Counted from the first letter of the stretch, positions 18,825 to 53,937 are shown. The stretch is 64,000 nt of DNA from Candidatus Gastranaerophilales bacterium (GCA_944325545.1 CALVAM010000011.1:2023-66022); one strand, 5' to 3'. Program-made: numbers and translations. The notes: generated by a model not told the origin, from the sequence alone.

Positions 18825-19721
18825 GTGAAAATTTTATCTGTTAATTCTGTTGGTTATAGAAATAATAATTATCATCTAAAATTTAATAAAAATAACAAAA
18901 GTAATTTTTTACAATTAACTAATGAGCCTATCTCAACAGTAAATTTTAAAGGGATAAATACTTTATCTCAAAGTTTTGAATATGGTTTATCTTTGGAAGA
19001 ATTGAAAGACAGATTAAGTCCTGAAAAATATACAAAATGAGATTTATTATTTCCCAAAAGTATTGAATATAAAAGTTTAGCTGATGGGGATAAAAAAGCT
19101 TTAGCTCATTTAGTAAGAGCTTCTGAATATTTTAATGACGTTTATAAACGTTTAGATGATGTTCATAATTTAGAGTTTGAAAAATTTTTAGCAACAAGAA
19201 TTGCTCAAGGTGATGAAAAAGCTGTTTTGACTAAAAAACTTTATGATGGTCAAAAAGGTATAAATGCAAAATCTGTTGACGGGTCTGAAGTCAATTTAGC
19301 TAAAGGAATTAAAACAATTGCAGGAAAAGGGTTTTATACCCTTCAAAAACAAAAAGAGATTTTAACATCTTGGATAGTTGGATATTTACCTTTAGGAGCG
19401 GATTTAAGTAATGCACATAGAGCGAGAAATATTATGCAGTATAACTATTTTATCCAAAATGGCGGAATAAAATTTGATAGCAATGGTAAAATAAAAATAG
19501 ATTTTGCTAAAATTACTCAGTGCGGAGAAAAAATGCTTAATGATGCTATAAAGATACAATTAAGCAAAAGTGAAAAAATGGCAAAAGAATATATTGAAAA
19601 ATATGCTGTTTGGACAAAAGAATTGGATATACTTGCAAATAAACTGAAACCTATTGATAAAAGATTGAATTCTTATTTGTATTCTCCAATCGCAAAAGAA
19701 GTTTTGAAAAAAATAAAATAA
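18825..19721 (+). pseudogene. Disrupted paralogue of the M49-like peptidase at 50713-52605
   Basis: The two listed ORFs (18825-19040, 19227-19721) share one frame broken only by TGA at 19038-19040; the read-through aligns to the paralogue (LADGDKKALAHLV vs LADGDKEALKHLV) but skips about residues 176-504, including HExxH. Confidence 0.8.
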
Positions 19722-19806
19722 TTCCTAAGTTTCTTTGATGTATAATTAATTTAGATTATTTAAATATGTAAATCTCAATAAAGTTGATTAAAAAAGGGAA
19801 TTAATT

Positions 19807-22458
19807 ATGCTAAAAGGAAATGAAATCAGACAATTATATTTAGATTATTTTAAAAATAAGCATCAACATACTGTTGTAGAAAGTTCAAGTTTGGTGCCTG
19901 ATAATCCGACAGTATTATTAACAACTGCCGGAATGCTGCAGTTTTTACCAATCTTTTTAGGGATTCAGAAGTGCCCTTACGATCCTGCAAGAGCAACATC
20001 TTGTCAAAAATGTGCAAGAGCAGGCGGCAAGGATTCTGATATTGAAAATGTTGGAAGAACTCCAAGACATCATACCTTCTTTGAAATGTTAGGAAATTTT
20101 TCTTTTGGAGATTATTATAAAAAAGAAATTATTCCTTGGGCTTGGGAATTTGTAACTGAAGTTTTGAAATTAGATAAAGACAGACTTTGGATAACTATTT
20201 TTGAAACTGATGATGAAGCTTTTGATATTTGGAGAAGTGTTGGCGTTCCAGCTGAAAGAATAAAAAGAAAAGGTAAAAAAGATAATTTTTGGGGACCTCC
20301 CGGAGCTTCAGGTTCTTGTGGACCTTGCTCTGAAATTCATTATGATTTAGGCGAACAGTATAAGTGTTCTGATGACTGCGGTATTGATACTTGCGAATGT
20401 GATAGATGGGTTGAAATTTGGAACTTGGTATTCACAGAATTATACCAAGATGAAGAAGGCAATCAATCACCACTGGAAAAGAAAAACGTTGATACTGGCA
20501 TGGGCTTAGAACGTATCACAATGGTTTGTCAAGGTGTTGCTTCTACTTTTGAAACTGATTTATTGAAACCTATTTTGGATAAAGTTTCTGAAATGAGTGG
20601 AGTTCCTTACAAAAAATCTGAAAAAACGGATATTTCTTTAAGAATAATAACTGACCATGCAAGATGCGTTTCTTTCTTAATCTCTGATGGAGTAATTCCT
20701 GGAAATGAAGGAAGAAGTTATGTTTTAAGAATGATTTTAAGACGTGCATTAAGACACGGTAAAATTTTAGGTATGGATTTACCTTTTTTATACAAACTTG
20801 TTGATACAGTTGTTGAACATTATGGCGAAGCTTATCCTGATTTAGTTAAAAATAAAGCTAAAATCGTTGATGTTATTAAGAAAGAAGAAGAACGTTTTGC
20901 TAAGACTCTTGATAGAGGTTACAAAATGTTGGATGAATTTATATCTGAAAAGAAAGATATCGATGGCGAAAGTGCATTTAAACTTTATGATACCTATGGT
21001 TTCCCATTTGAATTAACAAAAGAAATTGCAGAAGAAAATTCTTTAAAAGTTGATGAAGAAGGATTTAAAGCAGCAATGCAAGAACAAAAAGAACGTGCAA
21101 AAGCTGCGACTGCAAAAATTTCTGTAACAGGCGATATTAAGTATGCAAAAGTAGAAGAAGAAGTTGGTTCAACTGAATTTGTAGGATATGAAGAAAATGT
21201 CTGTGAAGCTAAAGTTTTAGCATTAATCGAAGGAGAAGGTTTTGTAGACGTTGTATTAGATAAAACACCTTTCTACGCTGAATGCGGTGGACAAGTCGGC
21301 GATAGCGGTTTTATTTTTAATGAAAACTTAAAGGTAGAAGTTTTAACTACATTTAAAGTAAATCATTTATTTGTTCACAGATGCCAGGTTGTAAATGGTG
21401 AAATTAATGTCGGTGATATTGTGATTGCTCATATTGATACAAATAAACGCAAAGAAATAAGAGTTCACCATACATCAGCTCACTTACTTCAAGCAGCTTT
21501 GATTAAAGTTTTGGGAGATGAAGTAAAACAAGCAGGATCTCAAGTAGAAGAAAATCGTATGAGATTTGATTTTACATTCTCTCGTGCAATGACTCCTGAA
21601 GAAATTGTTAAAACCGAAGCTTTAATGAATGAATGGATAGATGATAAATTACCTGTTCAAACAGAAGTTATGGGAATAGAAGAGGCAAAACTTACCGGTG
21701 CTACTGCTTTATTTGGAGAAAAATACGAAGATGAAGTTCGTGTAGTATCAATTGGCGGAAAGAAAAAATGTCATTGCCATGGCGGAAAATGTAAAGGACA
21801 TCATAACCATCCTGAACATGAAGTTGTTTCAATGGAATTTTGTGCAGGAACTCATGCTAAAAATACAGGTGATTTAAGATTGGTTAAAATTATTTCAGAA
21901 GGTGCAATTGCAGCAGGAACAAGAAGAATTGAGCTTGTTGTTTCAAATGCGGCTATTGATTATTTAAATAAAAAATCTGCTGAAATTGATAAATTAGCTT
22001 CAAGATTTAAGCTACATTTTGATGAAGTAAATTCAAGAGTAGAAAAATTACTTGAAGAAAATCGTGAACTTCAAAAAGAATTGGAACAAACAAAAGCAGA
22101 TATGGCAAAATCTAAATTTGCAACATTTATTTCTAAAGCAGAAGAAATAGAAGGCGGTAAATTATTTGTATCAAAAATAGAAAATTTTGATGCCGATGCT
22201 GTTAAAGCAGGAATTGAAGCTCTTGCTAATAAATTAGGTGAATGTATTATAATCCTTGCAAATGAAAAGATGGTAATTTCAAAAGTTACTGAAGGCTTTG
22301 TCAAAAAAGGAATTAATGCAGGAAAATTAGTCGGTGAAATTGCAAGATATACAGGTGCTAATGGAGGCGGAAGACCTAATTTAGCTCAAGGCGGGGTTAA
22401 AGATTATACCAAGCTTGATGAAATTCTTGCTAAAATAGAGGCTGATTTAAAAGCTTAA
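19807..22458 (+). CDS. alaS: Alanine--tRNA ligase
   Basis: TTAGMLQF, HHTFFEMLGNFSFGDY, DTGMGLER, DHAR, LYDTYGFP, HTSAHLL, FCAGTH, GGGRPNLAQGG. Confidence 0.98.
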   Translation: MLKGNEIRQLYLDYFKNKHQHTVVESSSLVPDNPTVLLTTAGMLQFLPIFLGIQKCPYDPARATSCQKCARAGGKDSDIENVGRTPRHHTFFEMLGNFSFGDYYKKEIIPWAWEFVTEVLKLDKDRLWITIFETDDEAFDIWRSVGVPAERIKRKGKKDNFWGPPGASGSCGPCSEIHYDLGEQYKCSDDCGIDTCECDRWVEIWNLVFTELYQDEEGNQSPLEKKNVDTGMGLERITMVCQGVASTFETDLLKPILDKVSEMSGVPYKKSEKTDISLRIITDHARCVSFLISDGVIPGNEGRSYVLRMILRRALRHGKILGMDLPFLYKLVDTVVEHYGEAYPDLVKNKAKIVDVIKKEEERFAKTLDRGYKMLDEFISEKKDIDGESAFKLYDTYGFPFELTKEIAEENSLKVDEEGFKAAMQEQKERAKAATAKISVTGDIKYAKVEEEVGSTEFVGYEENVCEAKVLALIEGEGFVDVVLDKTPFYAECGGQVGDSGFIFNENLKVEVLTTFKVNHLFVHRCQVVNGEINVGDIVIAHIDTNKRKEIRVHHTSAHLLQAALIKVLGDEVKQAGSQVEENRMRFDFTFSRAMTPEEIVKTEALMNEWIDDKLPVQTEVMGIEEAKLTGATALFGEKYEDEVRVVSIGGKKKCHCHGGKCKGHHNHPEHEVVSMEFCAGTHAKNTGDLRLVKIISEGAIAAGTRRIELVVSNAAIDYLNKKSAEIDKLASRFKLHFDEVNSRVEKLLEENRELQKELEQTKADMAKSKFATFISKAEEIEGGKLFVSKIENFDADAVKAGIEALANKLGECIIILANEKMVISKVTEGFVKKGINAGKLVGEIARYTGANGGGRPNLAQGGVKDYTKLDEILAKIEADLKA

Positions 22459-22479
22459 GTTTAATTTTAATTTATTAGC

Positions 22480-22513
22480 GGCGAAGTTATTTTTAAATAA
22501 CTTCGCCTCTTTT
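22480..22513 (+). terminator. Intrinsic terminator after alaS
   Basis: Stem GGCGAAGTTATT/AATAACTTCGCC followed by TCTTTTT. Confidence 0.8.
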
Positions 22514-22587
22514 ATAATCTTGAAAATTTCAAAAAGTAATTTATAATTATATATATATTATATATGTAAATTTGAAAGGATTTAATT

Positions 22588-27121: not shown

Positions 27122-28210
27122 TTATAGATAATTAAGTAAACTCATTCCCATAGAAGCAGATGATACTTGTAAACTGGCTTGGTAAGCATATTGAGCTTGA
27201 AACCAATCCGTAATTGCAGTAGTTAAATCAACATCTCGGATTTCAGATAAATATGAAGTTAAATTCATATTATTAGTATCTAAAGTAGATGTAGTCATTT
27301 CCAAACGATTATAAACTCCACCAAATTTAGTTTGTTCTTCAGTAATTGTCTTGAGAGAAGTATCAAACATGTCTAAAGTAGCGTTCATTTGTTCATAACC
27401 GGCTTCTGTATCACCATCAAGAACCATTTGGATAGAATTACTTAGCATTTTTAAAGCACCCATAACCCCAGAAGATTCTTCAGGAGCTCCATCAGTTAAA
27501 TCTCCAACATCACCTGTATATGCCATGCCATTTTCATAAGTATAAACAGGTTGACCTAATTCATCAGTAGTTTCAATTACCCTTTTCCCGTTTGCATCTG
27601 TATAGACTCCATTACCGGGCTCAACCGCAGCTTTATAGTATCCAAAAACTCTATCACCTGTCGTATTTATTACTTCAAAAACCCCGTCTGATACTTCGGT
27701 TTGTCTTATATAATCCTTGTTGTCATAAGGAGTACCGTTATAAACTACATCTCCATTTTCGGTTATTGTGTAAGGAACAGTTTTTGTATTAGCTCCTCCA
27801 AAAATAAAATTATCGTCATATTCAGTATTAGCTAAATCAACCATCGTCTTTAGAGTTTCATCTATTTCTACTTTTAAAGCTTGAAGAGAATCATTGCCAT
27901 AAGTTTGGTTATTAGCTTGCACCGCTTTATCCCACGCAGTTTGTAAATATCCTGTAGCAAGTGTCATTAAATCGTCTAATGAACTTAATTCACTTTTTGC
28001 CATTTCTACATTTGTAGAAAAAGTTTCGATTTGTCCTAATTGTCTATTGGTATTTAATATATTTACAGAAGCAATAGGATCATCTGTAATACTAAGAATT
28101 TTATGACCGGAACTTAATTGAGCATTAATTCGGTTATAATTGATAAGATTTTGTTGCATATCAGCTACTAATTGAGCATATCTTCCTGAAGTTGAAACTC
28201 TATCTACCAT
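27122..28210 (-). CDS. flgL: Flagellar hook-associated protein 3
   Basis: Flagellin-family termini: QLSSGHKI...DDPIA, FIFGG, FGGVYNRL, DVDLTTAI, MSLLNYL; follows flgK. Confidence 0.92.
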   Translation of the reverse strand: MVDRVSTSGRYAQLVADMQQNLINYNRINAQLSSGHKILSITDDPIASVNILNTNRQLGQIETFSTNVEMAKSELSSLDDLMTLATGYLQTAWDKAVQANNQTYGNDSLQALKVEIDETLKTMVDLANTEYDDNFIFGGANTKTVPYTITENGDVVYNGTPYDNKDYIRQTEVSDGVFEVINTTGDRVFGYYKAAVEPGNGVYTDANGKRVIETTDELGQPVYTYENGMAYTGDVGDLTDGAPEESSGVMGALKMLSNSIQMVLDGDTEAGYEQMNATLDMFDTSLKTITEEQTKFGGVYNRLEMTTSTLDTNNMNLTSYLSEIRDVDLTTAITDWFQAQYAYQASLQVSSASMGMSLLNYL

Positions 28211-28214
28211 CTTT

Positions 28215-29813
28215 CTAACCTCCTAATGTCATTAATACGTCAAGACAACTGTTACAAGTATTAAATACTTGTGCGGCTGCAGAATATGCTGTTTGATATT
28301 TCACTAAATCGACCAATTCTTCGTTTAAATCAACACCGCTTGTATTTTTAATTTTAGTAGCAACAGAATCAACTACACTAGTTTGTGTATCATATAATGT
28401 TTGCGTACTGCTGCCTGCAGATGCTACTTTCCCAACTAATGAAGTATAATAGCTTTCTAAAGACATTCCATTAAGAGCATCTTGCTTAGAATCCCTAGTT
28501 CCAAGCATTGCTACAACGTTTTGAGAATTTCCGACTGCATTTAAATCGACATTTGCAGGGTTTTCAAAATACGCACAAGAAATATTCCAAATCCCGTTAT
28601 CTGCCAGTAATGCATCATTTAACTTAATATTTCCTGCTGTAATTCCTGTTCCTGTACCGTCAGCTCCAACAAAAAGTAAATTGTCATCAGCACTGTCAAT
28701 TAATTTTTCTGTATCATTTGGGTCAATACAGTACGCACCTTCTCTTGTGTTTAATTCATTGAATATATCAGCTATAGTTTGTGCTAAAGTATCAAGACTT
28801 TCTCTAACAGTTCCGGCATTAGTTTCACCTTCTCCTGCTGTTGCAGAATGTAAAAGACCACCTAAGGTTCCCTCTGTTATCATTGAATTTGCATTTGAAA
28901 CTACTACTTTATTATTTTCTTCCGGATTAATTATACTTATAACCGCATTTTCTCCATCCCAATCATCAGGATAAGCTATCGGAGGATTTTGGGATTCACA
29001 ATAAGTCTTTGCAGTTTGAATATCAAGCTTGCCGACTACTTTTGAACCCTTAACTACTTCTGTAGTACCAATTGATACGTTAACTGTACCATTATGTTTT
29101 TCCTCTACAGAAATATCAACATATTGAGCAATGTCATTTAAAATCATATCGCGTTTATCAAGCAAATTATTTGCTTCTAAAGTACCTGTCTGAGTTACTT
29201 GTAAAGCTCTATTTATATCTGCTAATTCTGTTAATTTATCATTTAATGCTGTATATTGAACATATATTTTGGAATTTTCTAAAGATTCTTGATTTTCACC
29301 ATCACCAAGGGCTTTTGTTGTTAATTCATCTAACTCAATACTTTTTGAATTCATGACTGATGTTAGAGTCTTAGCAGTTTCTATAAAGTTAGTTCTGGCT
29401 GTAGAACTTGCAGGATATTCATTTAAATTGTTTAAAGCTTCATAAAAATCACTTAGAGCTGCATCTAAGCCTTCGCCTTCTAAATCATCCAGAATATCTG
29501 CTAAATCATTTAAAGTATCAAGTTGTTGATCCAATTTATTTTGTGTAGACAACTGATCTCTATAATAATTGTTTAAATAAGAATCAGTGTATCTCATAAC
29601 GTTAGCTATCATGACTCCGCCATTTGACCGAATTTGAGCAACAACATTATCTCCTATAGCTCCGCCAATATTTCTCGTAGCAAGGTTGACTTTTTGTTTT
29701 GAATAGCCTTCTGTATTCATATTAGAAACGTTATGTGATACTACACTAATGGCTTGTTCGTTTACTGAAAGTGTATTAGCAGTCATATTAAGCGATGATA
29801 ATAAGCTAACCAT
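28215..29813 (-). CDS. flgK: Flagellar hook-associated protein 1
   Basis: VSHNVSNMNTEGYSKQ, PASSTAR, NNLLDKRD, SGVDLNEELVDLVKYQTAYSAAAQV. Confidence 0.96.
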   Translation of the reverse strand: MVSLLSSLNMTANTLSVNEQAISVVSHNVSNMNTEGYSKQKVNLATRNIGGAIGDNVVAQIRSNGGVMIANVMRYTDSYLNNYYRDQLSTQNKLDQQLDTLNDLADILDDLEGEGLDAALSDFYEALNNLNEYPASSTARTNFIETAKTLTSVMNSKSIELDELTTKALGDGENQESLENSKIYVQYTALNDKLTELADINRALQVTQTGTLEANNLLDKRDMILNDIAQYVDISVEEKHNGTVNVSIGTTEVVKGSKVVGKLDIQTAKTYCESQNPPIAYPDDWDGENAVISIINPEENNKVVVSNANSMITEGTLGGLLHSATAGEGETNAGTVRESLDTLAQTIADIFNELNTREGAYCIDPNDTEKLIDSADDNLLFVGADGTGTGITAGNIKLNDALLADNGIWNISCAYFENPANVDLNAVGNSQNVVAMLGTRDSKQDALNGMSLESYYTSLVGKVASAGSSTQTLYDTQTSVVDSVATKIKNTSGVDLNEELVDLVKYQTAYSAAAQVFNTCNSCLDVLMTLGG

Positions 29814-29871
29814 TTTTACCTCATTTCTGATTTAAGCTTGTTCTTTAGAGCCTATAGGCTTACATTTACCT

Positions 29872-30369
29872 CTAGACTTCTTCATTTATGGTCCACATGT
29901 CTATATCATGTGTGTCTGTTTTTCCTGCTCCATTATAATTACATCCTTGAGGAGCAAAAGCATCAATAATTGTTTCCAACATCTTGTTAGATATTATTAT
30001 GCCATGTTTCAAGAGTTCCACATTTTGATTATTTAATAACGTTAACTCGGGAATAATGTTACAAATCTTTACTTTTCTTTCTTCTAATGCAGGAACAAAT
30101 TCCGGTGCGTGTTCCTTTGCATATCCTATAAAACGGGACATGTTAACATTTTCTCCCATTAATTCTATGGAGATTTTTTCTCTTGATTGATTAAGTTTAG
30201 TGATTTCATTATTTAATGCAACAATTCTATTATCTACATTTCCTAATTCATCAGCTTTTGATTGTTTCAAGATTTCTTTTTTTTCTTCAAACAAATCTCT
30301 TAGTCTTGAATATGCATCAATTTCTTTATCTAAGATTTCTATTAAGTTGTAAAATATTTTTTTATCCAT
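29872..30369 (-). CDS. flgN: Flagellar export chaperone FlgN
   Basis: Helical protein (EIDAY..L, LNNQNVELL) immediately upstream of flgK. Confidence 0.75.
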   Translation of the reverse strand: MDKKIFYNLIEILDKEIDAYSRLRDLFEEKKEILKQSKADELGNVDNRIVALNNEITKLNQSREKISIELMGENVNMSRFIGYAKEHAPEFVPALEERKVKICNIIPELTLLNNQNVELLKHGIIISNKMLETIIDAFAPQGCNYNGAGKTDTHDIDMWTINEEV

Positions 30370-30411
30370 TTATATCCTTGTATTAACTTGTTTTTAATAT
30401 GTTCAAACACC

Positions 30412-31020
30412 TTAGAATAAGTATTTGATGAATCTATTGAATATACCTTCGTTTTGGTTTCTGGAAATTGTACCTCTTCCTGATAATGCAAATTGTAGAT
30501 TAGAAACATTATAAGAGTATATTTCACCATCTACATTAAGCCATCTTGGATCTATAACGCCTGTTACAATGAAGTCCATTCTTTCATTTCCGTTTACAAG
30601 CGTCTTTTTACCTTGTACTGCTAAATTTCCATTAGGAAGTTGTTGAACGACTTGAACTGCAATTTGGTCTCCGAAAGACATTGTCCGCCCGCCAGCTGCG
30701 GAATTTGATACTTCATTTGTTCCGCCAAAACCGTCAGAATCTTTAAAAGATAAGCCAAACCATTTATTAAAAAATGACGTAAAAGTATCCACTGTATTAG
30801 AAGATTTTTCTGATGAATATGTTAAATTATCGCTTACTGTAATGTTTTCAGCCATAATTATAGAGATTAAATCGCCCACTTGCCTTGCTTGAACCCCTCC
30901 AAACAAAGAACGTGGAACGCCTGAATAATTTTGACTAGCTCCCAGTGTAAACAATGATTCAGCGTTTACTGTCATTATTGACATCGTTAATATTATCAAA
31001 CTTACAATGAACTTTTTCAT
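30412..31020 (-). CDS. flgH: Flagellar L-ring protein
   Basis: SLF...ARQVGDLISI, VVQQLPNGNLAVQG.K, ITGVIDP. Confidence 0.88.
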   Translation of the reverse strand: MKKFIVSLIILTMSIMTVNAESLFTLGASQNYSGVPRSLFGGVQARQVGDLISIIMAENITVSDNLTYSSEKSSNTVDTFTSFFNKWFGLSFKDSDGFGGTNEVSNSAAGGRTMSFGDQIAVQVVQQLPNGNLAVQGKKTLVNGNERMDFIVTGVIDPRWLNVDGEIYSYNVSNLQFALSGRGTISRNQNEGIFNRFIKYLF

Positions 31021-31047
31021 CTTATTATCCTCTTTATCCCTAAAAAT

Positions 31048-31323
31048 TTAGCAAAGATATTCCGCTATAACACTTCTACCGTATAATAAACCGTATTTTA
31101 TGTCATCATCCGAAATATTGAATTCTCCAACAGATTTAGCACATTCTCTCAATTCATCCACATCAATTTTATCTAACAAACTTACATTTGAAGTAGTATT
31201 AAGCCCTTGAGAATGTTGAACAACATCCATTTCCTCTTGTTTTGGAGGATTTTGAGCTGTTTTAAATGCGTTTAATGCACTAAATTGTTGTACTGAATTA
31301 TTTTGTCCTATTGATGATAACAT
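31048..31323 (-). CDS. Hypothetical protein inside the flagellar operon
   Basis: 91-aa ORF with AAAGGA RBS between flgJ and flgH; no FlgM signature recognised. Confidence 0.75.
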   Translation of the reverse strand: MLSSIGQNNSVQQFSALNAFKTAQNPPKQEEMDVVQHSQGLNTTSNVSLLDKIDVDELRECAKSVGEFNISDDDIKYGLLYGRSVIAEYLC

Positions 31324-31350
31324 TATTTATTCCTTTCGTAGTTTATAATT

Positions 31351-31375
31351 CTATTCACTACTCACTATTCACTAA
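31351..31375. repeat. 25-nt heptamer element, copy 2
   Basis: CTATTCACTACTCACTATTCACTAA exact. Confidence 0.9.
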
Positions 31376-31418
31376 TTACTTTTTCTTTATTTTTATTAAG
31401 CTTTTTACTCATTCTTAC

Positions 31419-31772
31419 TTAATTTCCGACGTATTTTTCCATTTGTCTGTAGATTTGATCTGCAAATCCAAAAGACGTTCTCGGATTGTTTGCAATATCA
31501 TGTCCCATTTGTTGGTATACTATTGATTTAAATGTATCAACGTAGTGAGTTTCTTTTCCAAATAGTCCATTTTCTCTATCAACAGTTTTGTCCATTTGGG
31601 AAAGCATTTTGGTTATAAAAATACTTTCAAATTCTGTTGCAGCTTTTCTTAACTGTTCTTTAGAATCACTTGAACCTTTAATTTGGTTATACAAAACTTG
31701 ATCTGAATTAACTGTCTGAGCATTTTGTAAACCGCTTTTTATTAAATCTATTGTAGGAGTTGAAAAATCCAT
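31419..31772 (-). CDS. flgJ: Single-domain FlgJ (rod-binding domain only)
   Basis: LRKAATEFESIFITKMLSQM.KTV and SFGFADQIYRQM; no muramidase domain. Confidence 0.85.
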   Translation of the reverse strand: MDFSTPTIDLIKSGLQNAQTVNSDQVLYNQIKGSSDSKEQLRKAATEFESIFITKMLSQMDKTVDRENGLFGKETHYVDTFKSIVYQQMGHDIANNPRTSFGFADQIYRQMEKYVGN

Positions 31773-31811
31773 ATTATCCTTTCATTATTGAATAGTTTAT
31801 AAGATAAATTT

Positions 31812-31843
31812 CTATTTACTATTCACTACTCACCATTCACTAA
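31812..31843. repeat. 25-nt heptamer element, copy 3 (one mismatch plus an extra heptamer)
   Basis: CTATTTA-CTATTCACTACTCACCATTCACTAA directly abutting the flgI stop. Confidence 0.85.
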
Positions 31844-32947
31844 TTAAATTATTACTAAATCAGCTTGTAAGCTTCCTGATTTTTTAAGTGCTTGTAAGAT
31901 AGAAATTAAATCAACAGGTGCAACTCCAATTGAATTTAAAGCTCTTACTAAATCATTAAGATTACTATTTGCAGGCATTGTAACTAAACTACCCGGAGCT
32001 TTGTTAATTTCTATATCAGAATTTTCAAACCCAACAGTCGCACCATTTGCAAACGCATTGGGTTGAGAAACATCGTTTGTTGTTGAAACTGTAACGGTTA
32101 TGTTACCGTGAGCTACCGCTGCAGGAAGTAATTTAACATCTGCTCCGATTACGACAGTTCCTGTTCTTTCATTAACAACAACTTTTGCTCTATCCATTGT
32201 TGGTGAAACTTCCAAATTTTCTAGAATAGAGATAAAAGTCACTCTATCATTCATGAATTTAGCAGGGATTTCCACTCTTACTGAACTTCCGTCAATAGCT
32301 TGAGCCGGTGCTATTTGAGATACTGATTTTGCAATTCTTGATACAAGAGTATAATCAGAACGGTCAATTGATAATGTAATAGAATTTTCATCACCGATTT
32401 CTGTATAAATATCTCTTTCAATTATTGCTCCACCAGGGATTCTGCCTGTTGTAGTAATAGCAGTTCTTGCAGAAGAACCTCCGGCTATTTTATTAATCCC
32501 ACCAACAGATAAAGGTCCTTGAGCTACCGCTACTGCTTCTCCGTTTGGTGCTTTTAAAATAGTTTGAACTAAAACTCCACCCTCTAAGCTCTTACAGTCT
32601 GCCATTGCTGATACTGTTACGTCGATTTTATCACCATTTTTAGAAAACGGAGGAACTGTTGCTGTTACTATTACTGCAGCAGAAGCCCCTTTTTGGATGT
32701 AGTTTTCTTGATCAATTACAGTACCTAAATTTCTTAATAACATTTTATTAGTAATCTGTGTAGAACGAGAATTATCACCTGTTCCAGGAAGACCAACTAC
32801 TACACCATAGCCTACTAATTGGTTTTCTCTAACTCCCTTAATATGAGTCAAATCCATGATTCTTACTTTTGCATCTATTGCTCTGCAAGGTAATAACCCT
32901 GTTAACATCATAAATATTACTAATAAACTTGATAAAACTTTTTTCAT
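31844..32947 (-). CDS. flgI: Flagellar P-ring protein
   Basis: GVRENQLVGYGVVVGLPGTGD, DCKSLEGGVL, VVVNERTGTVVIG, DLISILQALKKSGSL. Confidence 0.97.
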   Translation of the reverse strand: MKKVLSSLLVIFMMLTGLLPCRAIDAKVRIMDLTHIKGVRENQLVGYGVVVGLPGTGDNSRSTQITNKMLLRNLGTVIDQENYIQKGASAAVIVTATVPPFSKNGDKIDVTVSAMADCKSLEGGVLVQTILKAPNGEAVAVAQGPLSVGGINKIAGGSSARTAITTTGRIPGGAIIERDIYTEIGDENSITLSIDRSDYTLVSRIAKSVSQIAPAQAIDGSSVRVEIPAKFMNDRVTFISILENLEVSPTMDRAKVVVNERTGTVVIGADVKLLPAAVAHGNITVTVSTTNDVSQPNAFANGATVGFENSDIEINKAPGSLVTMPANSNLNDLVRALNSIGVAPVDLISILQALKKSGSLQADLVII

Positions 32948-32971
32948 ATACTTACCTTTTTTGTTTTGAGT

Positions 32972-33129
32972 TATGAGTGAGGAGTGAGGTGAAACGAGAA
33001 ATTTATTTCAAATTTTTCTTTTCTATTCACTATTTACTAATTACTACTTTTAACACCCTCTTCACTCATCACACCTCGCACATCACTTTTTACTAATCTA
33101 TTCACTACTCACTATTCACTAATCACTTT
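32972..33129. repeat. Degenerate heptamer tract between flgA and flgI, containing 25-mer copy 4 (33098-33122) and an oppositely oriented AGTGAGG run
   Basis: TCAC/TTAC units at about 7-nt period from 33023; TGAGTGAGGAGTGAGGTGA at about 32974-32992 in the other orientation. Confidence 0.8.
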
Positions 33130-33834
33130 TTATATATTTACCAAAACCTTATTTTCTCCGATTACTTTTCCATTGTATACTTTTTTATAATTTTTATTTT
33201 CTACATTGACGTAATCTCCGGTCATTCCATCCATCATCGCAGTTCCGTCAATCGATATCATTACTGCCCCATTTGATACAAAGAAAATTCTTACATCAGA
33301 ATTTCTTGCTACATCAGGACGCATTTTTACAAATCTTTTGTCAATAATTTCACCTTTTTGAAATGCTTTTTTAGTAGTGATTTCTTTTTCCAACATTTTT
33401 TCTGTAAGAATATAATCCATTCTCATTGAAACATCTACTTTTTTTACTTCTGTACAATCTTTTGTTAAAGTCTGTTCTCTTGCGATAAAATCACTAGCTA
33501 CAAGGACTTCTTCATAGACAATAGTTTGTACCGGTAAGTTTAATGATTTTACAAAAGCATTATTTACATAAATATCAACTCTTTTTATATCACGAGGAAG
33601 AATTTTATCTCCGCCTGATACAATTTTATAAGAGATTTTTCCATCAGGTAATTGCAATTGTGCAAAAGGAGTTGCAGAAACTTTTACTTCTACATCACCT
33701 GAGGTCATTTTTTTGTAGTTATCTTCTAAAATTTGAGCAACAGAAACTTTTACATTGGCAGAAGAAAGCATTTGAGCATTTGCTCCTAAACTTCCTACTA
33801 ACATTATTAAAGCTGTTACTACAATTTTTTTCAT
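33130..33834 (-). CDS. flgA: Flagellar P-ring formation chaperone
   Basis: Signal peptide, SAF-like domain, C-terminal G.AMMDG..G..V.VEN...KKV..GKV. Confidence 0.85.
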   Translation of the reverse strand: MKKIVVTALIMLVGSLGANAQMLSSANVKVSVAQILEDNYKKMTSGDVEVKVSATPFAQLQLPDGKISYKIVSGGDKILPRDIKRVDIYVNNAFVKSLNLPVQTIVYEEVLVASDFIAREQTLTKDCTEVKKVDVSMRMDYILTEKMLEKEITTKKAFQKGEIIDKRFVKMRPDVARNSDVRIFFVSNGAVMISIDGTAMMDGMTGDYVNVENKNYKKVYNGKVIGENKVLVNI

Positions 33835-33878
33835 CTACTACTTACCTTTTTGTTTTGAGACTCTAACTTTCTTATGAA

Positions 33879-33916
33879 CCCCACCCCCTAGCCCCCTCCC
33901 TCAAGGGGCGGGGGAA
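33879..33916. repeat. GC-rich REP-like hairpin
   Basis: CCCCACCCCCTAGCCCCCTCCCTCAAGGGGCGGGGGAA in an otherwise very AT-rich region; CCCCC.CCC/GGG.GGGGG stem. Confidence 0.55.
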
Positions 33917-33988
33917 TTGAATTCTCCCCTTTACTTATTATTTTGTTGGACTAGTAAGCTCAACCTAATTTTGTTTAATTTTCAAAAT

Positions 33989-34167
33989 TCTCTTCACTAG
34001 TCACTTCTCACTCATCACTTTTTAACAATCTCTTCACACCTCACTCTTCACTAGTCACTTCTCACTCATCACTTTTTAACAATCTCTTCATACCTCACTC
34101 TTCACTAGTCACTTCTCACTCATCACTTTTTAACAATCTCTTCACACCTCACTCTTCACTAGTCACT
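33989..34167. repeat. Tandem repeat, 54-bp unit, about 3.3 copies
   Basis: Units start at 33991, 34045, 34099 and 34153 (TCTTCACTAGTCACTTCTCACTCATCACTTTTTAACAATCTCTTCACACCTCAC); one substitution among the three full copies. Confidence 0.95.
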
Positions 34168-34170
34168 CTA

Positions 34171-34956
34171 TTATGACATATTATTAGTTAATTGAAGAAT
34201 ATTGCTTGAAGAGTTAATTATTTTTGAATTAGATTCAAAAGCTCTTTCTGCTTTAATCAAACCAACCAATTCATCAACAATTTGAACGTTAGAACCTTCA
34301 AGCATACCTTGTTGAATCAAACCTAAACCGTTTTGTCCAGGAGTATCTTGAACAGGGTTTCCTGAAGCTTGAGTTTCTTTGTACAAATTATGTCCGATTG
34401 ATAAAAGACCTGATGGGTTTTGGAATTTTACCAACTGAAGCGAACCAACAATAGATTGTTGAGTTTGTCCGGGAAGTGTTACTGATATATTACCGTCTTG
34501 AGTAATAGTAATTTCAGTAGCATCTCTTGGAATAGAAACAGAAGGCTGAATTAAAAGCCCGTCATTTGTACATAATTGACCTAAAGAGTCTACTTGCAAA
34601 CAACCGTCACGAGTGTAAGCAAGAGAACCGTCTTCTTTCATTACTTGTAAGAAACCTTCCCCTTCGATTTCGATATCAAGTTGACGTCCTGTTGAAATTG
34701 CAACACCTTGAGTGAATACACGAGTAGTCGCGGCTGTTTTTACCCCAAGCCCGATTTCTATACCAACAGGTTGATAAGTACCTTGATTCATCAATGCACC
34801 AGGAGTTCTTACTGCTTGTGATAACAAATCTTGAAACTCTATTCTTGATTGTTTAAATGCAGTAGTGTTAACGTTTGCTACGTTGTTTGCAATTACATCA
34901 AGATAGTTTTGTTGTGCTATCATACCTGTTGCTGCTGTTGTTAATGCTCTTAACAT
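34171..34956 (-). CDS. flgG: Flagellar distal rod protein
   Basis: ANNVANVNTTAFK, FQDLLSQ, IGLGVK, YTRDG, LEGSNV. Confidence 0.95.
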   Translation of the reverse strand: MLRALTTAATGMIAQQNYLDVIANNVANVNTTAFKQSRIEFQDLLSQAVRTPGALMNQGTYQPVGIEIGLGVKTAATTRVFTQGVAISTGRQLDIEIEGEGFLQVMKEDGSLAYTRDGCLQVDSLGQLCTNDGLLIQPSVSIPRDATEITITQDGNISVTLPGQTQQSIVGSLQLVKFQNPSGLLSIGHNLYKETQASGNPVQDTPGQNGLGLIQQGMLEGSNVQIVDELVGLIKAERAFESNSKIINSSSNILQLTNNMS

Positions 34957-35024
34957 TTTTTCCTCTTTTCCTCTTTATCTGGTAACCTTACCCCTGTTGA
35001 CGATTTTTATCCTTGTATTTTATT

Positions 35025-35852
35025 TTAACTTGTTCTTATTCGTCCTACAGATACTGCTGTTGTTAACATGTCACTATTTGTACTTACTATTTTGGTTAAA
35101 CTTTCATAATTTCTTGTGGTATTAATTGTATTAATCATTTCTTTTATTACGTTTGAATTTGAAAGTTCTAACATCCCTTGTTGTACAGTAAATTTTTCCG
35201 AACGTAATTCAGGATTATTGATAATATCACGCGGTACAAATTTTGCATCACCTATTTCAAACAAATCATCTTTATCCGCAAAATCGTAAACACCAATTGT
35301 TTGAAGCGGTATTTTTTGATTGTATGAGTTAATTTCAATATTTCCGTTTTCTGCAATTACGATATCTTTTCTATCTCTGAAAATAGTTTCATCATCCATA
35401 TCTTCAGGAAGCATTCTAATTCTTCTATTATTGATATCTAAAACAAACTCTCCTTGTTTTGTTTTAAGCCAATAACCTCTATCAACAACGAATGAACCAT
35501 TACGAGTATATGAAACATTACCCTCTGCATCTTGAATTTTAAAGAAACCATCACCTTCGATTGCTACATCATAAGGATTTGAAGTCTTCGTTAATGCTCC
35601 TTGTGAAAAATCGTGAGTATATTGCATACTCTGACTTCCGCAACTTAAACTTCCTATATATTCATTTGAATGATTACGAATTACAGAACCTTCTTTGTTG
35701 TATACAGCTGATTCCATAATATCTTTAAATCTTAATGAACCTTTTTTATAACCTACTGTATTAACATTTGCCAAATTATTAGCAGTATTATCATTCATAT
35801 CCATAAGAGCGAGCATGCCGTTAGCAGCTGATTCAAAACTTCTTACTATCAT
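35025..35852 (-). CDS. flgF: Flagellar proximal rod/basal-body protein
   Basis: ANNLANVNTVGYKK, DFSQG, DVAIEGDGFF, YTRNGSF, LELSNSN; upstream of flgG. Confidence 0.85.
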   Translation of the reverse strand: MIVRSFESAANGMLALMDMNDNTANNLANVNTVGYKKGSLRFKDIMESAVYNKEGSVIRNHSNEYIGSLSCGSQSMQYTHDFSQGALTKTSNPYDVAIEGDGFFKIQDAEGNVSYTRNGSFVVDRGYWLKTKQGEFVLDINNRRIRMLPEDMDDETIFRDRKDIVIAENGNIEINSYNQKIPLQTIGVYDFADKDDLFEIGDAKFVPRDIINNPELRSEKFTVQQGMLELSNSNVIKEMINTINTTRNYESLTKIVSTNSDMLTTAVSVGRIRTS

Positions 35853-35905
35853 TACTTCGCTCCTTTCTTTTTAACTTGAGGGGCTAAATCCAATCTATTG
35901 TACAT
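35852..35905 (-). CDS. Putative micro-ORF 3 (MYNRLDLAPQVKKKGAK)
   Basis: AAGGAG SD upstream; its TAA overlaps the flgF ATG (TAATG). Confidence 0.35.
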   Translation of the reverse strand: MYNRLDLAPQVKKKGAK

Positions 35906-35960
35906 TTACCCCCGCTCCTTTCTTTTTTACTAGGCGGGTTAAGTTCAATCTAATAAACAT
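35895..35960 (-). CDS. Putative micro-ORF 2 (MFIRLNLTRLVKKKGAGVNVQ)
   Basis: AAGGAG SD upstream; overlaps the end of micro-ORF 1 by 11 nt. Confidence 0.35.
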   Translation of the reverse strand: MFIRLNLTRLVKKKGAGVNVQ

Positions 35961-36015
35961 TTACCCCCGCTCCTTTCTTTTTTGCTTGGCGGGTTAAGTT
36001 CAATCTAATAAACAT
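35950..36015 (-). CDS. Putative micro-ORF 1 (MFIRLNLTRQAKKKGAGVNVY)
   Basis: ATG directly follows the slt stop (TAAATG); GAAAGGGGGG upstream; ends TAG. Confidence 0.35.
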   Translation of the reverse strand: MFIRLNLTRQAKKKGAGVNVY

Positions 36016-49287: not shown

Positions 49288-50622
49288 TTAAATATCCTTA
49301 TCATCAAAAAGTTTGTTGAAAAAGTTTTTAATTTTTTGTCTTAAACTTCTTTTGGGTTTTATTTCTTCCGTTTGTTTAGGTTGAACATTTTGAGCGTTGT
49401 ATTTGTTATTAAATTTTTTTCCCCATTTACTGGTTTTTCTTTTTATTTTTTGATTTCTTTTTGAGTCTTCCAGAGCTTTCTTTTTTTCTGCAAAAATTCT
49501 ATCTTTTTTAGAAACTTTATTAGTTTTTATTTTTATTGGAACTTCTTCTTTTTTTGTAAAATCAAACCAATTAAAATTAGATTTTTGGTTTAAATCTATT
49601 TTAGCTACATTATCTAAATTCAAAGTATGGTTTTCACTTGTATTTAGAAACGCTTTTTTATCTATATTTAAGTTTTTTCTTGTCTTTAGATTAAAAAATA
49701 AAGCTACTATGTTTTGTTTTATTTTATGAACAAATTTGTTAGTTTTTTTCTCACTCGTATCTTGAATATTAATATCTTTAATTTTAGTTTTTTTAGAATT
49801 ATAAGTATAATCTTTTAAATAACTTTCAGGAGCTTTATCTAAATTCAAAGTATTGTTTTCACTTGTATTTAAAAACGCTTTTTTATCAACATTTAAACTT
49901 TTTCTTGTTCTTAAGTTGAATAAAAGAATTTCAATATTAAGCTTTAACTTATCTAAAAAGTTTAATTTTTCATTAGTTTCTATAGCAGCTTCTTTTATTG
50001 GCGAATCTTTTTTAGTCGTTTCTTTTTTTGTAATTTTTTCTGTTTTTTTAGAAATTTGTTCTATATATCCTCTTTCTTCTTTAGAATTAAAAGGAATTAA
50101 TTTATAATTAAAAGTTTGAATATTGTCTTGTTTGTTTGTAGAAAATATTATATTATTAGTTGTTTTTGTATTGTTTTTTGGAACTGTTTCATTTGAAGTT
50201 GTTTTGAAATTTTCGTTTTTGTAAAAACCTTGAGTTTCTGTTTTTCTTTTATTAGTTTTTTTTAAATTTTCAGCAGCTTCTTTTGTTTTATCTTGGAGTT
50301 TTTTATTAATTTCTTCAAGTTTAGTTTTTAATTCTTGTTGATTTTTTTCTGAAAGATTTAGTTTTTCAAGAGCTTTTTTTAAACTTTCATTTAATCCTTT
50401 ATTTTTGTGAATAGCAACTCCGGCAACAGTTGCAGAACCTAAAAAACCTAAAGTAAGTAATATATCTTTAGTGTTAAAACTTGATTTTTTTGTTGGAATT
50501 GTTTTTATAAAATCATCATTTATAAAAGATTCATTTTGACTAAGAGTAGGATTTTCAATCTTTTCTTCTGACTTAAAGTTTATAAATTTATTAGGAATAT
50601 TAAAATTATTAGAAATTTTCAT
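49288..50622 (-). CDS. Lys/Asn-rich hypothetical protein with one TM segment and an internal repeat
   Basis: LLTLGFLGSATVAGVAI; about 80-nt near-duplicates at 49610 and 49835 (225-nt spacing). Confidence 0.7.
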   Translation of the reverse strand: MKISNNFNIPNKFINFKSEEKIENPTLSQNESFINDDFIKTIPTKKSSFNTKDILLTLGFLGSATVAGVAIHKNKGLNESLKKALEKLNLSEKNQQELKTKLEEINKKLQDKTKEAAENLKKTNKRKTETQGFYKNENFKTTSNETVPKNNTKTTNNIIFSTNKQDNIQTFNYKLIPFNSKEERGYIEQISKKTEKITKKETTKKDSPIKEAAIETNEKLNFLDKLKLNIEILLFNLRTRKSLNVDKKAFLNTSENNTLNLDKAPESYLKDYTYNSKKTKIKDINIQDTSEKKTNKFVHKIKQNIVALFFNLKTRKNLNIDKKAFLNTSENHTLNLDNVAKIDLNQKSNFNWFDFTKKEEVPIKIKTNKVSKKDRIFAEKKKALEDSKRNQKIKRKTSKWGKKFNNKYNAQNVQPKQTEEIKPKRSLRQKIKNFFNKLFDDKDI

Positions 50623-50655
50623 ACTAAACCTTTCAAGAAATAATACATAATAATT

Positions 50656-50692
50656 AAAGCACCTGAAAAAATAAATTGCTATCAGGTGCTTT
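50656..50692. terminator. Probable intrinsic terminator after the M49-like gene
   Basis: AAAGCACCTGA/TCAGGTGCTTT stem with a 15-nt loop. Confidence 0.6.
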
Positions 50693-50712
50693 TTTATTAA
50701 GTTTTTGTTACA

Positions 50713-52605
50713 TTATTCATTTAAAAGCTTATCTGCTAAAGGTGATTCGACTTTTCCATTTAGAGTTTTGGATACTTTTTTAATGTTTTCTGACATTGTT
50801 TGCATTTCAGGAGTCCATACAAAATTATCCATCACATATTTTTCCCCTTTAGAAAAATCTCCTTTCATTTGTACTTGGATAATTTCTTCAAGCATTTTCT
50901 TTGCAGTTGGTATCATTTTTTCTATATTAACGTTTAAGATACCGTCTTTAGAAATTTCCATTGCACCTTCTTTTATAAAATAGTAATTTTGCATAACTGA
51001 ACGAACTCTATGAGCTTGGCTTAGAGTTGGTTTAGAAGTCATCATATTATCTGCTGCATATGTTACTATTATTTGATTTCTTTGCTCAGGTGTATACATT
51101 CCTGCCTCTGTTAATACATCAAGCATTGCAAGAGAAACCATATCAGCTTTATTTTCTTCAATAATTGATTTATATTTACCCAAACCTTCTGTACCTGATT
51201 TTGGTCCAAGAGAATGTCCGTTTTCATGTCCTACTGTGAACCAGTGATCTGCTTCGTCGTTATAATATTTATGTAGTTCAGGGTTTAGAGTTGCATCTAA
51301 ACGTTTCTTCATTTTTTCTCTAGCATCATCCGATGTAATTAATCTTATTTGTCTATGATAAACGTTTCTTCTTCCGCCATCTAATTCTATTATTGATAAT
51401 TTATCATCATTAGGTAAATTTTCTGCAAGAGTTATCCCTGCTCTAAATTCTCCAACATCACCGTTTACTGCAACTAAATCTACATCAACCATTGTTTGTT
51501 TAGATTCTTTATCCGGTGAAATGTTTTGGATATAACTATCTTTGAAAGGCATATTTTGTGCCATTAGCGGTAAATAATTTTTAACGCCTAAAATAGCTTC
51601 TGTACCTTTTTTATTAACTATTCCGACACGACCGCCTAAAAAGTCTTTAGCAACAGGAGTGATTCCATTTTCATCAAGTAATTTTTTTAATTCAGGATTT
51701 TCAACTACAGTTTCTGTTAATTCATCTGAATAATTTTCTCTTGTTATTGTAAATTCTAACGGAGTATCTTGTAGGGTTGCCCATTTTTTATCCGCATAAG
51801 CATCTAACATTGGGTCTGCTGTTCTTAAAGCTTTTGCCTGCAGTTTTAAGAATTCGTTAAAATCTTCATTTGTTGATGTTTCTGCGGCCTTTTCAAGTTC
51901 TGATGACATATAAGCAAAATCATCTTTAAATTTATCTACATAATCTGTAGCTACAAGTTCATTTCCAACTCTTTCTACAACAGAGCGTTGATTTAGAATT
52001 TTAGCAACTTCATCTACTTTACCTTCTTTTAACATTTTAATTAATATATTGTGAAATTCTTCTTTTTCTAAGTCTTGAGGATAAACACCTTTTCCGGGTC
52101 TTTCTTTGACACCTTTAGCCAGTTCTATCATATTGCTTTCTCTATCAAGTGAACAAACTCCTTTTTGAGCATCAAAAAGAATCTTTGTTAATTTTGCTTG
52201 CTCGTTACCTTTTGCAATTTCTTTTTCCAAATATTCTTGAAAAGGTAAGTTATTAGGGTTATCAAGCTGCATATTAACTTTATCCAAAACCTTTGCAGCC
52301 TTTACTAAATGTTTTAAAGCTTCTTTATCTCCATCTGCTAATTCTAAATATTCAGGTGCGTCAACTGCTAGCATTTTTTTTGTTGTTAGATAGTCTTTGT
52401 GAGTTCTTTTTTCTAACTCTTCCATAGAAAGATTTAATTCGTAATCTTTTTTATTAATATTTACATTATTAATCATACTCATTCTATTAAGCTCCTCTAC
52501 TAATTTTTGTGAATCATCTTTTTTTATATTTTTATTATCATCTTTGGAAATATAATTTTTCCCAAAAAGATTAATATTATTTTTATTTAAACGATTTATT
52601 TCCAT
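50713..52605 (-). CDS. Peptidase M49-like (dipeptidyl peptidase III-like) zinc metallopeptidase with a low-complexity N-terminus
   Basis: GHENGHSLG (HExxH), downstream IEENKAD third-ligand motif, AENLPND, GKGVYP. Confidence 0.85.
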   Translation of the reverse strand: MEINRLNKNNINLFGKNYISKDDNKNIKKDDSQKLVEELNRMSMINNVNINKKDYELNLSMEELEKRTHKDYLTTKKMLAVDAPEYLELADGDKEALKHLVKAAKVLDKVNMQLDNPNNLPFQEYLEKEIAKGNEQAKLTKILFDAQKGVCSLDRESNMIELAKGVKERPGKGVYPQDLEKEEFHNILIKMLKEGKVDEVAKILNQRSVVERVGNELVATDYVDKFKDDFAYMSSELEKAAETSTNEDFNEFLKLQAKALRTADPMLDAYADKKWATLQDTPLEFTITRENYSDELTETVVENPELKKLLDENGITPVAKDFLGGRVGIVNKKGTEAILGVKNYLPLMAQNMPFKDSYIQNISPDKESKQTMVDVDLVAVNGDVGEFRAGITLAENLPNDDKLSIIELDGGRRNVYHRQIRLITSDDAREKMKKRLDATLNPELHKYYNDEADHWFTVGHENGHSLGPKSGTEGLGKYKSIIEENKADMVSLAMLDVLTEAGMYTPEQRNQIIVTYAADNMMTSKPTLSQAHRVRSVMQNYYFIKEGAMEISKDGILNVNIEKMIPTAKKMLEEIIQVQMKGDFSKGEKYVMDNFVWTPEMQTMSENIKKVSKTLNGKVESPLADKLLNE

Positions 52606-52667
52606 AAGGATTCCTTCTGTAAATTATTGATTGATTTAATTTATTAATTTTATGTTTATTTTCATTT

Positions 52668-53498: not shown

Positions 53499-53613
53499 TA
53501 AGATTTCTCCTATAATTTGCCTAAATTATAGCATAAAACTCCACTAAATAGCAAAAAAGATGAATTGAACGCTTACAATTCACCTCTTACTTAAAATAAG
53601 AAAATATTAAATC

Positions 53614-53937
53614 TTATTTTTTAAATTTTTTCTGTTCTTCATTATATTTGTCTACAGATTTTCCAACAGCTCCGCCAAGAGAACCAAATATCGCACCATA
53701 AGCTAAATATGCTGCAGGAGCTGCTATGCCGCCACTTAAAAAAGTAATCGCAGCTAAAGCTCCAACTCCGACTACAGCACCAATCCCAGCACCTTTAACA
53801 GCCCCTTTGCCTTTAAAAGAAACTGTATCTGTTGCGAGAGTTTCATTAGAGTTTGTTGGAATTTCGTTTCTAAATTTCTTGTTAATTTTTCTAGGCGAAC
53901 AGGTAAGCCCATAACTTTGGATAGCATTGATTTTCAT
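53614..53937 (-). CDS. Small glycine-zipper membrane hypothetical protein
   Basis: GAVKGAGIGAVVGVGA...GAIFGSLGGAVG; ATG at 53937 has a GAGGGT RBS, and the promoter position excludes the 53964 start. Confidence 0.78.
   Translation of the reverse strand: MKINAIQSYGLTCSPRKINKKFRNEIPTNSNETLATDTVSFKGKGAVKGAGIGAVVGVGALAAITFLSGGIAAPAAYLAYGAIFGSLGGAVGKSVDKYNEEQKKFKK

Follow-up and report, generated by a model that had tools for sequence, protein, structure and literature searches.

Introduction

Non-flagellar proteins are known to pass through flagellar type III machines. Cases include the Cia and Fed proteins of Campylobacter jejuni, YplA of Yersinia and the basal bodies of Buchnera. To our knowledge, substrates of this type carry no sequence-defined consensus tag, and in none of these cases do they amount to 2–4% of a proteome. 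Here we describe a short N-terminal leader on unrelated proteins of a Candidatus Gastranaerophilales bacterium which, in the reading we propose, would likewise make a flagellar-type gate a general protein exporter. The leader came to light in a stretch of 64,000 nucleotides (contig C11:2023-66022; hereafter the window), in which a first-pass annotation had noted it on two unrelated proteins and, in shorter versions, on two more, as a candidate export signal. The host genome (G000) is a 1.82-Mb assembly of 37 contigs with 29% G+C. It belongs to an uncultured gut member of the order Gastranaerophilales, in the non-photosynthetic cyanobacterial class Vampirovibrionia (Melainabacteria). We found that the leader is a real module that purifying selection maintains, that it lies outside the cargo fold and is acquired or dropped as a whole, and that its carriers are confined to non-housekeeping proteins. 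No description of the motif was found in the literature searched.

The dual export signal of the early flagellar substrate FlgD of Salmonella combines the residues 2-SIAV-5 with the gate recognition motif 36-FLTLL-40 (PMC8983047). Like this signal, the leader is N-terminal, disordered and bipartite and has no Sec-type hydrophobic core. Small non-polar residues lie within the first ≈ 7 positions (Ile or Val at 3 and 6) and are followed by a downstream Phe motif, which long-form leaders place at residues 39–41, as compared with 36–40 for the gate recognition motif. The leader-bearing organism also encodes matching export gates. Unlike FlgD, the leader has [IV]-[NS] followed by F-x-[GSA], with Gly, Ser or Ala conserved at F+2, rather than FxxxPhi, and its cargo consists of enzymes and membrane proteins, not of axial subunits as among the flagellar early substrates. 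The leader resembles injectisome effector signals in being disordered, polar (Ser/Asn/Ile-rich) and acid-poor over the first 15–25 residues. Those signals have no conserved motif, whereas the Phe of the leader and the small residue that follows are near-invariant.

With Sec, Tat, lipoprotein, prepilin and double-glycine leaders, the element has in common the N-terminal position and a small residue (Gly, Ser or Ala) at the junction. It had been described as unlike Sec and Tat signals, and this description holds. It has neither the 7–15-residue hydrophobic h-region that Sec signals combine with an AxA-type site, nor the RR motif and h-region of Tat signals (S/T-R-R-x-F-L-K); genuine Sec signals occur elsewhere in the genome. 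There is no Cys at +1 as in lipoproteins. Type IV prepilins have a G/F junction (the slash marks the site) leading into a hydrophobic helix with Glu5, and the true prepilins of the host read MNKTG/FTLAEVLV; in the leader, Gly, Ser or Ala at −1 is followed by diverse cargo. Finally, P2 is Lys, Arg, Gln, Asn or Thr, not Gly as in the double-glycine leaders of peptidase-containing ABC transporters (PCAT). Chloroplast transit peptides are acid-poor, rich in hydroxylated or amide residues and unstructured, and carry a loose Phe-Gly/Lys motif of the FGLK type that is read in the TOC/TIC context. The leader has similar traits and belongs to the sister lineage of the plastid ancestor. This is an analogy only and implies neither homology nor a similar receptor. 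Three things are new relative to all these signals: a near-invariant Phe box, defined by sequence, in a leader that is disordered; the two preferred lengths of the leader; and its link to a lineage that keeps a second export core of flagellar descent.

Results

The leader consists of two blocks. Block A, M-[KQN]-[IV]-x-x-[IV]-[NS], is anchored at the start and has Ile or Val at positions 3 and 6 in the consensus. Block B, the Phe box, reads [IV]-[NS]-F-[KR]-[GSA], or more broadly [IV]-[NS]-F-x-[GSA], and directly adjoins the first residue of the folded cargo. When 33 short leaders were aligned, a canonical short form of 13 residues emerged, M-K-I-N-x-I-N-N-x-N-F-K-G. A six-frame scan of the host genome for [ILVT][NSDT]FKG gave many further N-termini of the leader type (MKINAINNTNFKG, MKIQDSNINFKG, MQINKTNLNFKG, MKINNINNNINFKG and MKVNSNRDISFKG).

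Motif statistics were obtained on a crude set of 1,695 host proteins, none shorter than 80 residues, with shuffled N-termini and internal Met positions as controls. Block A, counted as ^M[KRQNH][IV]x2-3[IV][NSQ], was present at 31 predicted N-termini, as against 3.0 ± 1.7 after shuffling, and at 0.15% of internal Met positions. Both blocks occurred together in 16 proteins where 0.08 were expected (odds ratio 18; Fisher p = 3e-12). The pattern [IVL]-x-F-[KR]-[GSA] was 5- to 7-fold enriched within the first 20 residues, and the profile was flat when Phe was replaced by Tyr or Leu. A hidden Markov model (HMM) of 13 positions, built around the 33 aligned short leaders, matched 35 host proteins at ≥ 10 bits and only one of the shuffled N-termini; two of the 35 matches look like false positives in housekeeping enzymes. 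The leader is thus enriched over compositional background, and housekeeping proteins are without it. When further variants are included, we estimate a total of ≈ 60–70 carriers, roughly 3.5% of the genes (range 2–4% of proteins). A degenerate DNA pattern for the leader found only three sites in the host genome and was dropped as too strict and frame-blind.

A stricter, two-block catalogue holds 46 carriers; statistics on length, on position F+4 and on transmembrane segments are given for 42 carriers. Leader lengths were bimodal. The shorter class (12–26 residues, mode 13) comprised 31 of the 42, and the longer class spanned 37–55 residues, with a cluster at 40–43. Both 43-residue leaders of the window fall in the long class. 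The identical spacing claimed for them stands for this pair; over the genome, the length is not fixed at 43 residues. Relative to the proteome, leaders are enriched in Asn (2.8-fold), Phe (1.5-fold) and Lys (1.4-fold), near par in Arg (0.9-fold) and depleted in Leu and Ala (0.5-fold) and in Asp and Glu (0.3- to 0.4-fold). This composition resembles that of type III signals. The leaders show no hydrophobic core, the absence of a hydrophobic stretch being also a selection criterion. One 145-residue host protein (C17:6324-6761) has three Phe boxes in series (MNSINFRG..VVNFRG..IVSFKG) with G-x-[TS]-AGSIA repeats between them, followed by a transmembrane helix.

Relatives were searched in 41 genomes of the order and 151 genomes of the class. 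Among the best homologues of a 166-residue dual-specificity phosphatase, 119 of 120 carry the leader (≈ 50–87% identity, with one 99%-identical fragment), mostly as a form of 10–13 residues. Phe is present in all 119 of these leaders, F+2 is Gly in 100 and Ala in 18, and a hydrophobic residue occupies F−2; what stands between Phe and Gly is freely variable (K, Q, R, T, C, L or N). An AlphaFold model from a 93-sequence alignment was of high quality overall (mean predicted local distance difference test score, pLDDT, 91; predicted template modelling score 0.86). Residues 1–10 had a mean pLDDT of 51, and residues 1–17 were assigned no secondary structure. Since its Phe is near-invariant and the tag is unstructured in the model, the tag is conserved yet lies outside the cargo fold. 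In the glycine-zipper membrane protein of the window, M1 to Q7, T36 to F41 and G43 were invariant over seven orthologues of 64–83% identity. Its AlphaFold model has residues 1–49 as coil and helices at 50–68 and 73–104, at low confidence from an alignment of only seven sequences.

The M49 peptidases give a view of gain and loss. Orthologues of the same genus have MNINPIN...[NS]-F-[KQ] at the leader position. Those from other families of the order start MNITNSFAYNKVANFKG, MNINNLFIYNKIINFKG or ...GINFKG (..NFKG or NFKS), and those of other orders have ...PNVHFAG, ...PNIHFGS or ...SVLFAG; in both groups, the leader is kept at ≈ 40% overall identity. Many sister genera have a leaderless M49 protein that begins exactly at the domain start, right after the F-K-G position; one example starts MREFEFNLSMEEL, matching ...NNINFKG/NYDLNLSSEEL, where the slash marks the junction. 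This agrees with the earlier proposal that homology to other domains begins only after FKG. Over the whole analysis, the first observation was confirmed and extended to a proteome-wide and order-wide module that, though diverged, can still be recognised in much of the class Vampirovibrionia. The leader HMM itself was too genus-specific to follow this distant distribution (19 matches in the host, 0–5 in sister genera and ≈ 0 elsewhere among the 151 class genomes).

That unrelated proteins share the leader was likewise upheld, and throughout the lineage: it is found on dual-specificity phosphatases, on M3, M16 and M49 peptidases, on GH77, GT1 and AAA proteins, and on orphans. Pfam searches on 30 carriers identified two dual-specificity phosphatases, peptidases M3 and M16, a GH77 4-alpha-glucanotransferase, a 900-residue GT1 protein, a classical AAA ATPase and a 997-residue protein with Clp_N, AAA and M41 (FtsH-like) domains. 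Eighteen of the 30 had no convincing Pfam domain, and NCBIfam added nothing for the ten of these orphans that were searched. A second GH77 enzyme and two more AAA proteins were recognised by sequence inspection, without a Pfam run. Several orphan carriers form paralogous membrane-protein families. No transmembrane segment was found in 31 of the 42 carriers by a simple hydropathy scan. Three carriers look tail-anchored, with one C-terminal hydrophobic helix and a basic tail: C8:22143-23918 (GH77), C3:5616-8315 (GT1, 900 residues) and C16:3626-4927. Ribosomal proteins, tRNA synthetases and glycolytic proteins are absent from the two-block catalogue. In C8:4513-11219, a gene pair is present in three tandem copies. 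Its first gene, M16-like by eye, has the leader MINPINISTNPICY...NNISFKN (MINPINIS...NNISFKN); its second encodes a transmembrane protein with an internal ..[NS]FK[GK] box and then a nearly identical acidic C-terminal domain (..IEDNNMDSSDHFADIDNSDIDN..DWL).

The four leaders of the window are all present with the residues and coordinates first reported, and each lies behind a Shine–Dalgarno-like run (GGGGG, GAGGG, AAAGG or GAAGGA) 6–9 nt upstream of the start. The two long forms, of 43 residues each, coincide at M1-K2-I3, S8, G10 and T38-V39-x-F41-K42-G43. One, MKILSVNSVGYRNNNYHLKFNKNNKSNFLQLTNEPISTVNFKG (MKILSVNSVG...STVNFKG; 18825..18953, plus strand), has a GTG start with GGGGG 6 nt upstream and opens an M49 (dipeptidyl peptidase III-like) paralogue at 18825..19721, a single frame on the plus strand. 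The gene had been called an M49 paralogue; it is M49-like, but decayed, its frame being interrupted in the assembled sequence only by a TGA at 19038-19040, and its catalytic HExxH core is deleted. Only the host among the 41 related genomes holds this paralogue, which is 36% identical to the intact gene. The other long form, MKINAIQSYG...ATDTVSFKG (53809..53937, minus strand), belongs to the glycine-zipper membrane protein (gene 53614-53937).

Both short forms are on the minus strand. The 18-residue leader MKISNNFNIPNKFINFKS (50569..50622) precedes a 444-residue Lys/Glu-rich protein (gene 49288-50622) with one transmembrane helix ≈ 35 residues past the leader. The 16-residue leader MEINRLNKNNINLFGK (52558..52605) begins the full-length M49 peptidase of 630 residues (gene 50713-52605). 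The rest of its 53-residue N-terminal extension (52447..52557, minus strand) ends in a degenerate second block B, NNVNINKK, which aligns to NNINFKG or NNINFQG in orthologues from two other genera. Pfam gave no match for this protein at E ≤ 0.1. It matches solved dipeptidyl peptidase III structures (PDB 6EOM, E = 4e-25; 5ZUM, E = 1e-13) and contains HENGH and EENKAD, corresponding to the HExxH and EExxAD motifs. An Rfam search of the window gave no match.

The window also contains a flagellar cluster (27122..36561, minus strand) with flgL, flgK, flgN, a flgH-position gene, a gene for a rod-binding protein, flgI- and flgA-position genes, flgG, flgF and an SLT lytic transglycosylase gene. Pfam supports FlgN, Rod-binding and SLT, and FlgL has a flagellin-N match; the names flgH, flgI and flgA are a reading of sequence and gene order. 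None of these products has a leader, and FlgK, FlgF and FlgG show the rod-type N-terminal motif. A 91-residue open reading frame at 31048-31323 (minus strand), between the flgH-position and rod-binding-protein genes, begins MLSSIGQNNSVQQFSA and has a leader-like Phe box. It lies roughly where a flgM-type gene might be expected and has no Pfam FlgM match. Another leader-like N-terminus, MSEVNGPKFGVNNVNFNS, begins a 109-residue open reading frame (window 1-197, plus strand) that starts 132 nt before the window.

The host genome encodes two flagellar-type gate sets. Set 1 is the cluster fliP-fliQ-fliR-flhB-flhA-1 (C24:4219-9259). Set 2 is split between two loci. The gene flhA-2 (C19:8015-10105) has an apparent fliE-fliF-fliG-fliH ahead of it (locus C19:4026-10105), and fliP-2, the second of two FliP genes (C5:7589-8161), is flanked by apparent fliN, fliO, fliQ and fliR (locus C5:6669-10387); short rod genes at the end of C1 are assigned to this set as well. 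Family searches confirm FlhA and FliP only, and the remaining gene names are sequence readings by eye. The FHIPEP and FliP searches found only these two flagellar-type sets, no search having been aimed at injectisomes. Two full-length FlhA paralogues are present in the host and in every one of the 41 order genomes, together with a soluble FlhA C-domain protein. In the host, the latter is a protein of ≈ 490 residues (C15:33254-34726, plus strand) in which a small N-terminal domain is joined to FlhA's C-terminal cytoplasmic domain (FHIPEP positions 321-655). It is also present in family f11 and was not seen in f18, f14 or f20.

Among the 151 class genomes, those with flagellin have both sets, and set 1 occurs only with flagellin. 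Set 2 alone is found in flagellin-less genera of the same family and in families f15 and f16; both sets are missing from families f12 and f17. This pattern is in line with reports that Gastranaerophilales often hold 'partial' flagellar gene sets (PMC5877343), which are kept in non-motile lineages of the order (PMC5877343, PMC3787301). Two flhA genes had already been listed, without remark, in an early analysis (PMC3787301). Since flagellin-less genera also keep set 2, it has the look of an ancient paralogous apparatus and not of a relic left by decay. Several flagellin genes lie behind unusually G+C-rich 5' regions of at least 150 nt (for example C1:136117-136276 and C1:122650-122809, in a genome of 29% G+C). 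This base composition suggests structured leaders or regulatory RNAs. Because of these long regions, no class-3 (sigma-28-type) promoter model could be derived.

We asked whether the tag follows the gate. A looser regular expression gave excess background on outgroup samples and was replaced by a stricter count, compared with 200 shuffles, of N-termini that are anchored at the start, lack acidic residues and hydrophobic character and end in ..F-x-[GSA] no later than residue 26, in the host and in samples of at most 400 kb from each of seven other genomes. In genomes with both gates, 35 such N-termini were observed in the host against 15.8 in shuffles (z = 4.9), 23 against 6.9 in G154, a 60% G+C relative (z = 6.4), and 12 against 5.3 in G044 (z = 3.1). 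With set 2 only, the counts were 10 against 2.9 in G070 (z = 4.1), 16 against 5.5 in G046 (z = 4.7) and 5 against 2.9 in G060 (z = 1.3). The gate-less G042 and G055 gave 2 against 2.7 (z = −0.4) and 2 against 1.3 (z = 0.6). Leader-like N-termini were thus enriched in five of six gate-bearing and none of two gate-less samples, which indicates that the tag goes together with a type III gate, set 2 being the one that the gate-bearing genomes share. The single phosphatase homologue seen in gate-less G042 starts MHLLPRDIYPHIPNLRKV and has no Phe box. The first-pass interpretation is thus partly supported as a whole; its tie to the flagellar type III system, suggested there from the flg operon, is a tentative one, based on a small and phylogenetically confounded correlation.

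Two candidate origins of the motif were tried and rejected. A Shine–Dalgarno artefact (TTTAAAGG inside the reading frame) is contradicted by Ser, Ala and Arg variants that alter the bases, by the lack of a start codon after the motif and by its persistence at 60% G+C. Block B is not a Flg_bb_rod motif (ANxxTxGF/YK): Pfam PF00460 matches no carrier, and rod proteins fail the leader HMM.

Discussion

We propose that the leader is a modular, disordered address tag that marks its cargo for a non-Sec sorting or export step. The reader would most plausibly be a flagellar-type type III export gate, with FlhA-2/FliP-2 as the best candidate, because set 2 is the only gate set common to all leader-bearing lineages sampled. 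The N-terminal Ile/Val pair would be the gate-engaging element and the Phe box a docking motif; the small residue that follows Phe-x may serve as a linker or mark where processing occurs. The blocks either lie next to each other (10–20 residues) or are parted by an Asn-rich spacer (≈ 40–43 residues). From the sequence evidence at hand, we give this reading a probability of about 45%. A more far-reaching form of it holds that a second flagellum-derived type III apparatus (FlhA-2, FliP-2/Q/R and the apparent FliN, FliE, FliF, FliG, FliH and short rod proteins), coexisting with the flagellum and surviving its loss, is a general exporter of 2–4% of the proteome by way of a bipartite consensus signal. 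In this strong form, we regard the proposal as rather unlikely.

Several observations weigh against export through a flagellar gate. The two parts of the Salmonella signal must be at least 19 residues apart, and 24–30 for efficient export (PMC8983047). Approximately 70% of the leaders place Phe at residues 8–20, with 2–12 residues between the blocks, and only the long forms (37–55 residues) agree with the required spacing of 19–30. Position F+4 is hydrophobic in only 36% of the 42 carriers, which departs from the FxxxPhi gate motif. The leader HMM gives no score to the flagellins of the host (M-x-x-INTN[LI]SS) or to its hook and rod proteins. Some carriers would be odd secretion substrates, as AAA+ ATPases, an FtsH-like protease and GH77 and GT1 enzymes with a tail anchor would normally work on the cytoplasmic side. 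The gate correlation comprises eight genomes, is phylogenetically confounded and reflects no more than about two independent events; families without a gate could just be distant clades, and G060 has a gate yet no clear enrichment. Export and cleavage of the carriers are put forward here as candidate functions.

The same features could be explained if the Phe box were a short linear motif by which diverse enzymes and membrane proteins gather at a common intracellular hub without translocation. Such a hub could be a scaffold, a complex associated with the membrane, or an AAA+ unfoldase or protease that reads the tag as an adaptor or degron. A disordered yet invariant tag is a typical signature of a binding motif, and some proteins have more than one box: C17:6324-6761 has three, and three C8 paralogues have internal copies. 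The three AAA proteins, the FtsH-like protein and the tail-anchored GH77 and GT1 carriers, which need cytoplasmic substrates, would be at home in such a system, and the 10–13-residue short form falls below the known geometry of type III dual signals. However, the analysis produced no candidate hub, and the strict anchoring of block A (M-K-I) at the start fits targeting signals better than it fits internal binding motifs. The cargo, rich in hydrolases and fast-evolving orphan paralogue families, is like that of secretomes, and the sampled distribution of the tag follows export-gate presence. We consider cytoplasmic docking the main alternative, if a somewhat unlikely one. Under either docking or export, cleavage at the F-x-[GSA] junction is possible.

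In a further reading, the leader would be a propeptide. An endopeptidase of its own would cut it off behind F-[KR]-[GSA], where P1 is a small residue, and this would activate or mature the cargo with or without export. Block B always lies exactly at the junction of leader and domain and ends in Gly, Ser or Ala, leaderless orthologues start at this junction, and many carriers are hydrolases and hence potential zymogens. Yet no cognate protease was found and the Prp/L27 system is absent; repeated Phe boxes would split some carriers into pieces, and lineages differ freely in the residue that follows Phe (K, Q, N, T, G or A). We hold this explanation to be improbable. A Prp/L27-type propeptide had been considered as a specific candidate and was rejected: L27 starts MAHKKGMGS with no extension, and rplU is directly followed or preceded by rpmA, so that the place of a Prp gene is empty. 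It might still be argued that the pattern carries no signal at all and is a by-product of AT-rich codon usage or of translation-initiation preference at the 5' ends of genes, as MK[IN] starts are cheap in A/T-rich codons in a genome of 29% G+C. But shuffled N-termini and internal Met positions do not reproduce it, it is specific for Phe with flat Tyr and Leu controls, the box persists in the 60% G+C relative as V-x-F-[GSA]-[GA], and Phe is retained in 119 of 120 phosphatase homologues while adjacent positions vary. The shuffles, the Phe specificity and the persistence at 60% G+C exclude an origin at the level of RNA or codon bias, and the chance that the leader has no function as a signal appears very slight.

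N-terminal sorting signals are among the most useful features in proteome annotation. If the proposed address tag is real, an unrecognised signal on 2–4% of proteins would redefine the secretome of a widespread lineage of the human and animal gut, and among the tagged proteins are peptidases, dual-specificity phosphatases and glucan-active enzymes with a possible action on host or diet. If its reader were instead cytoplasmic, the leader would represent a new hub-and-tag organisation of enzymes. If a type III gate reads the tag, no type III pathway before this one would have had a consensus signal that can be recognised, and the finding would explain the 'partial flagellar gene set' of flagellin-less Gastranaerophilales, which has so far been read as decay (PMC3787301, PMC5877343).

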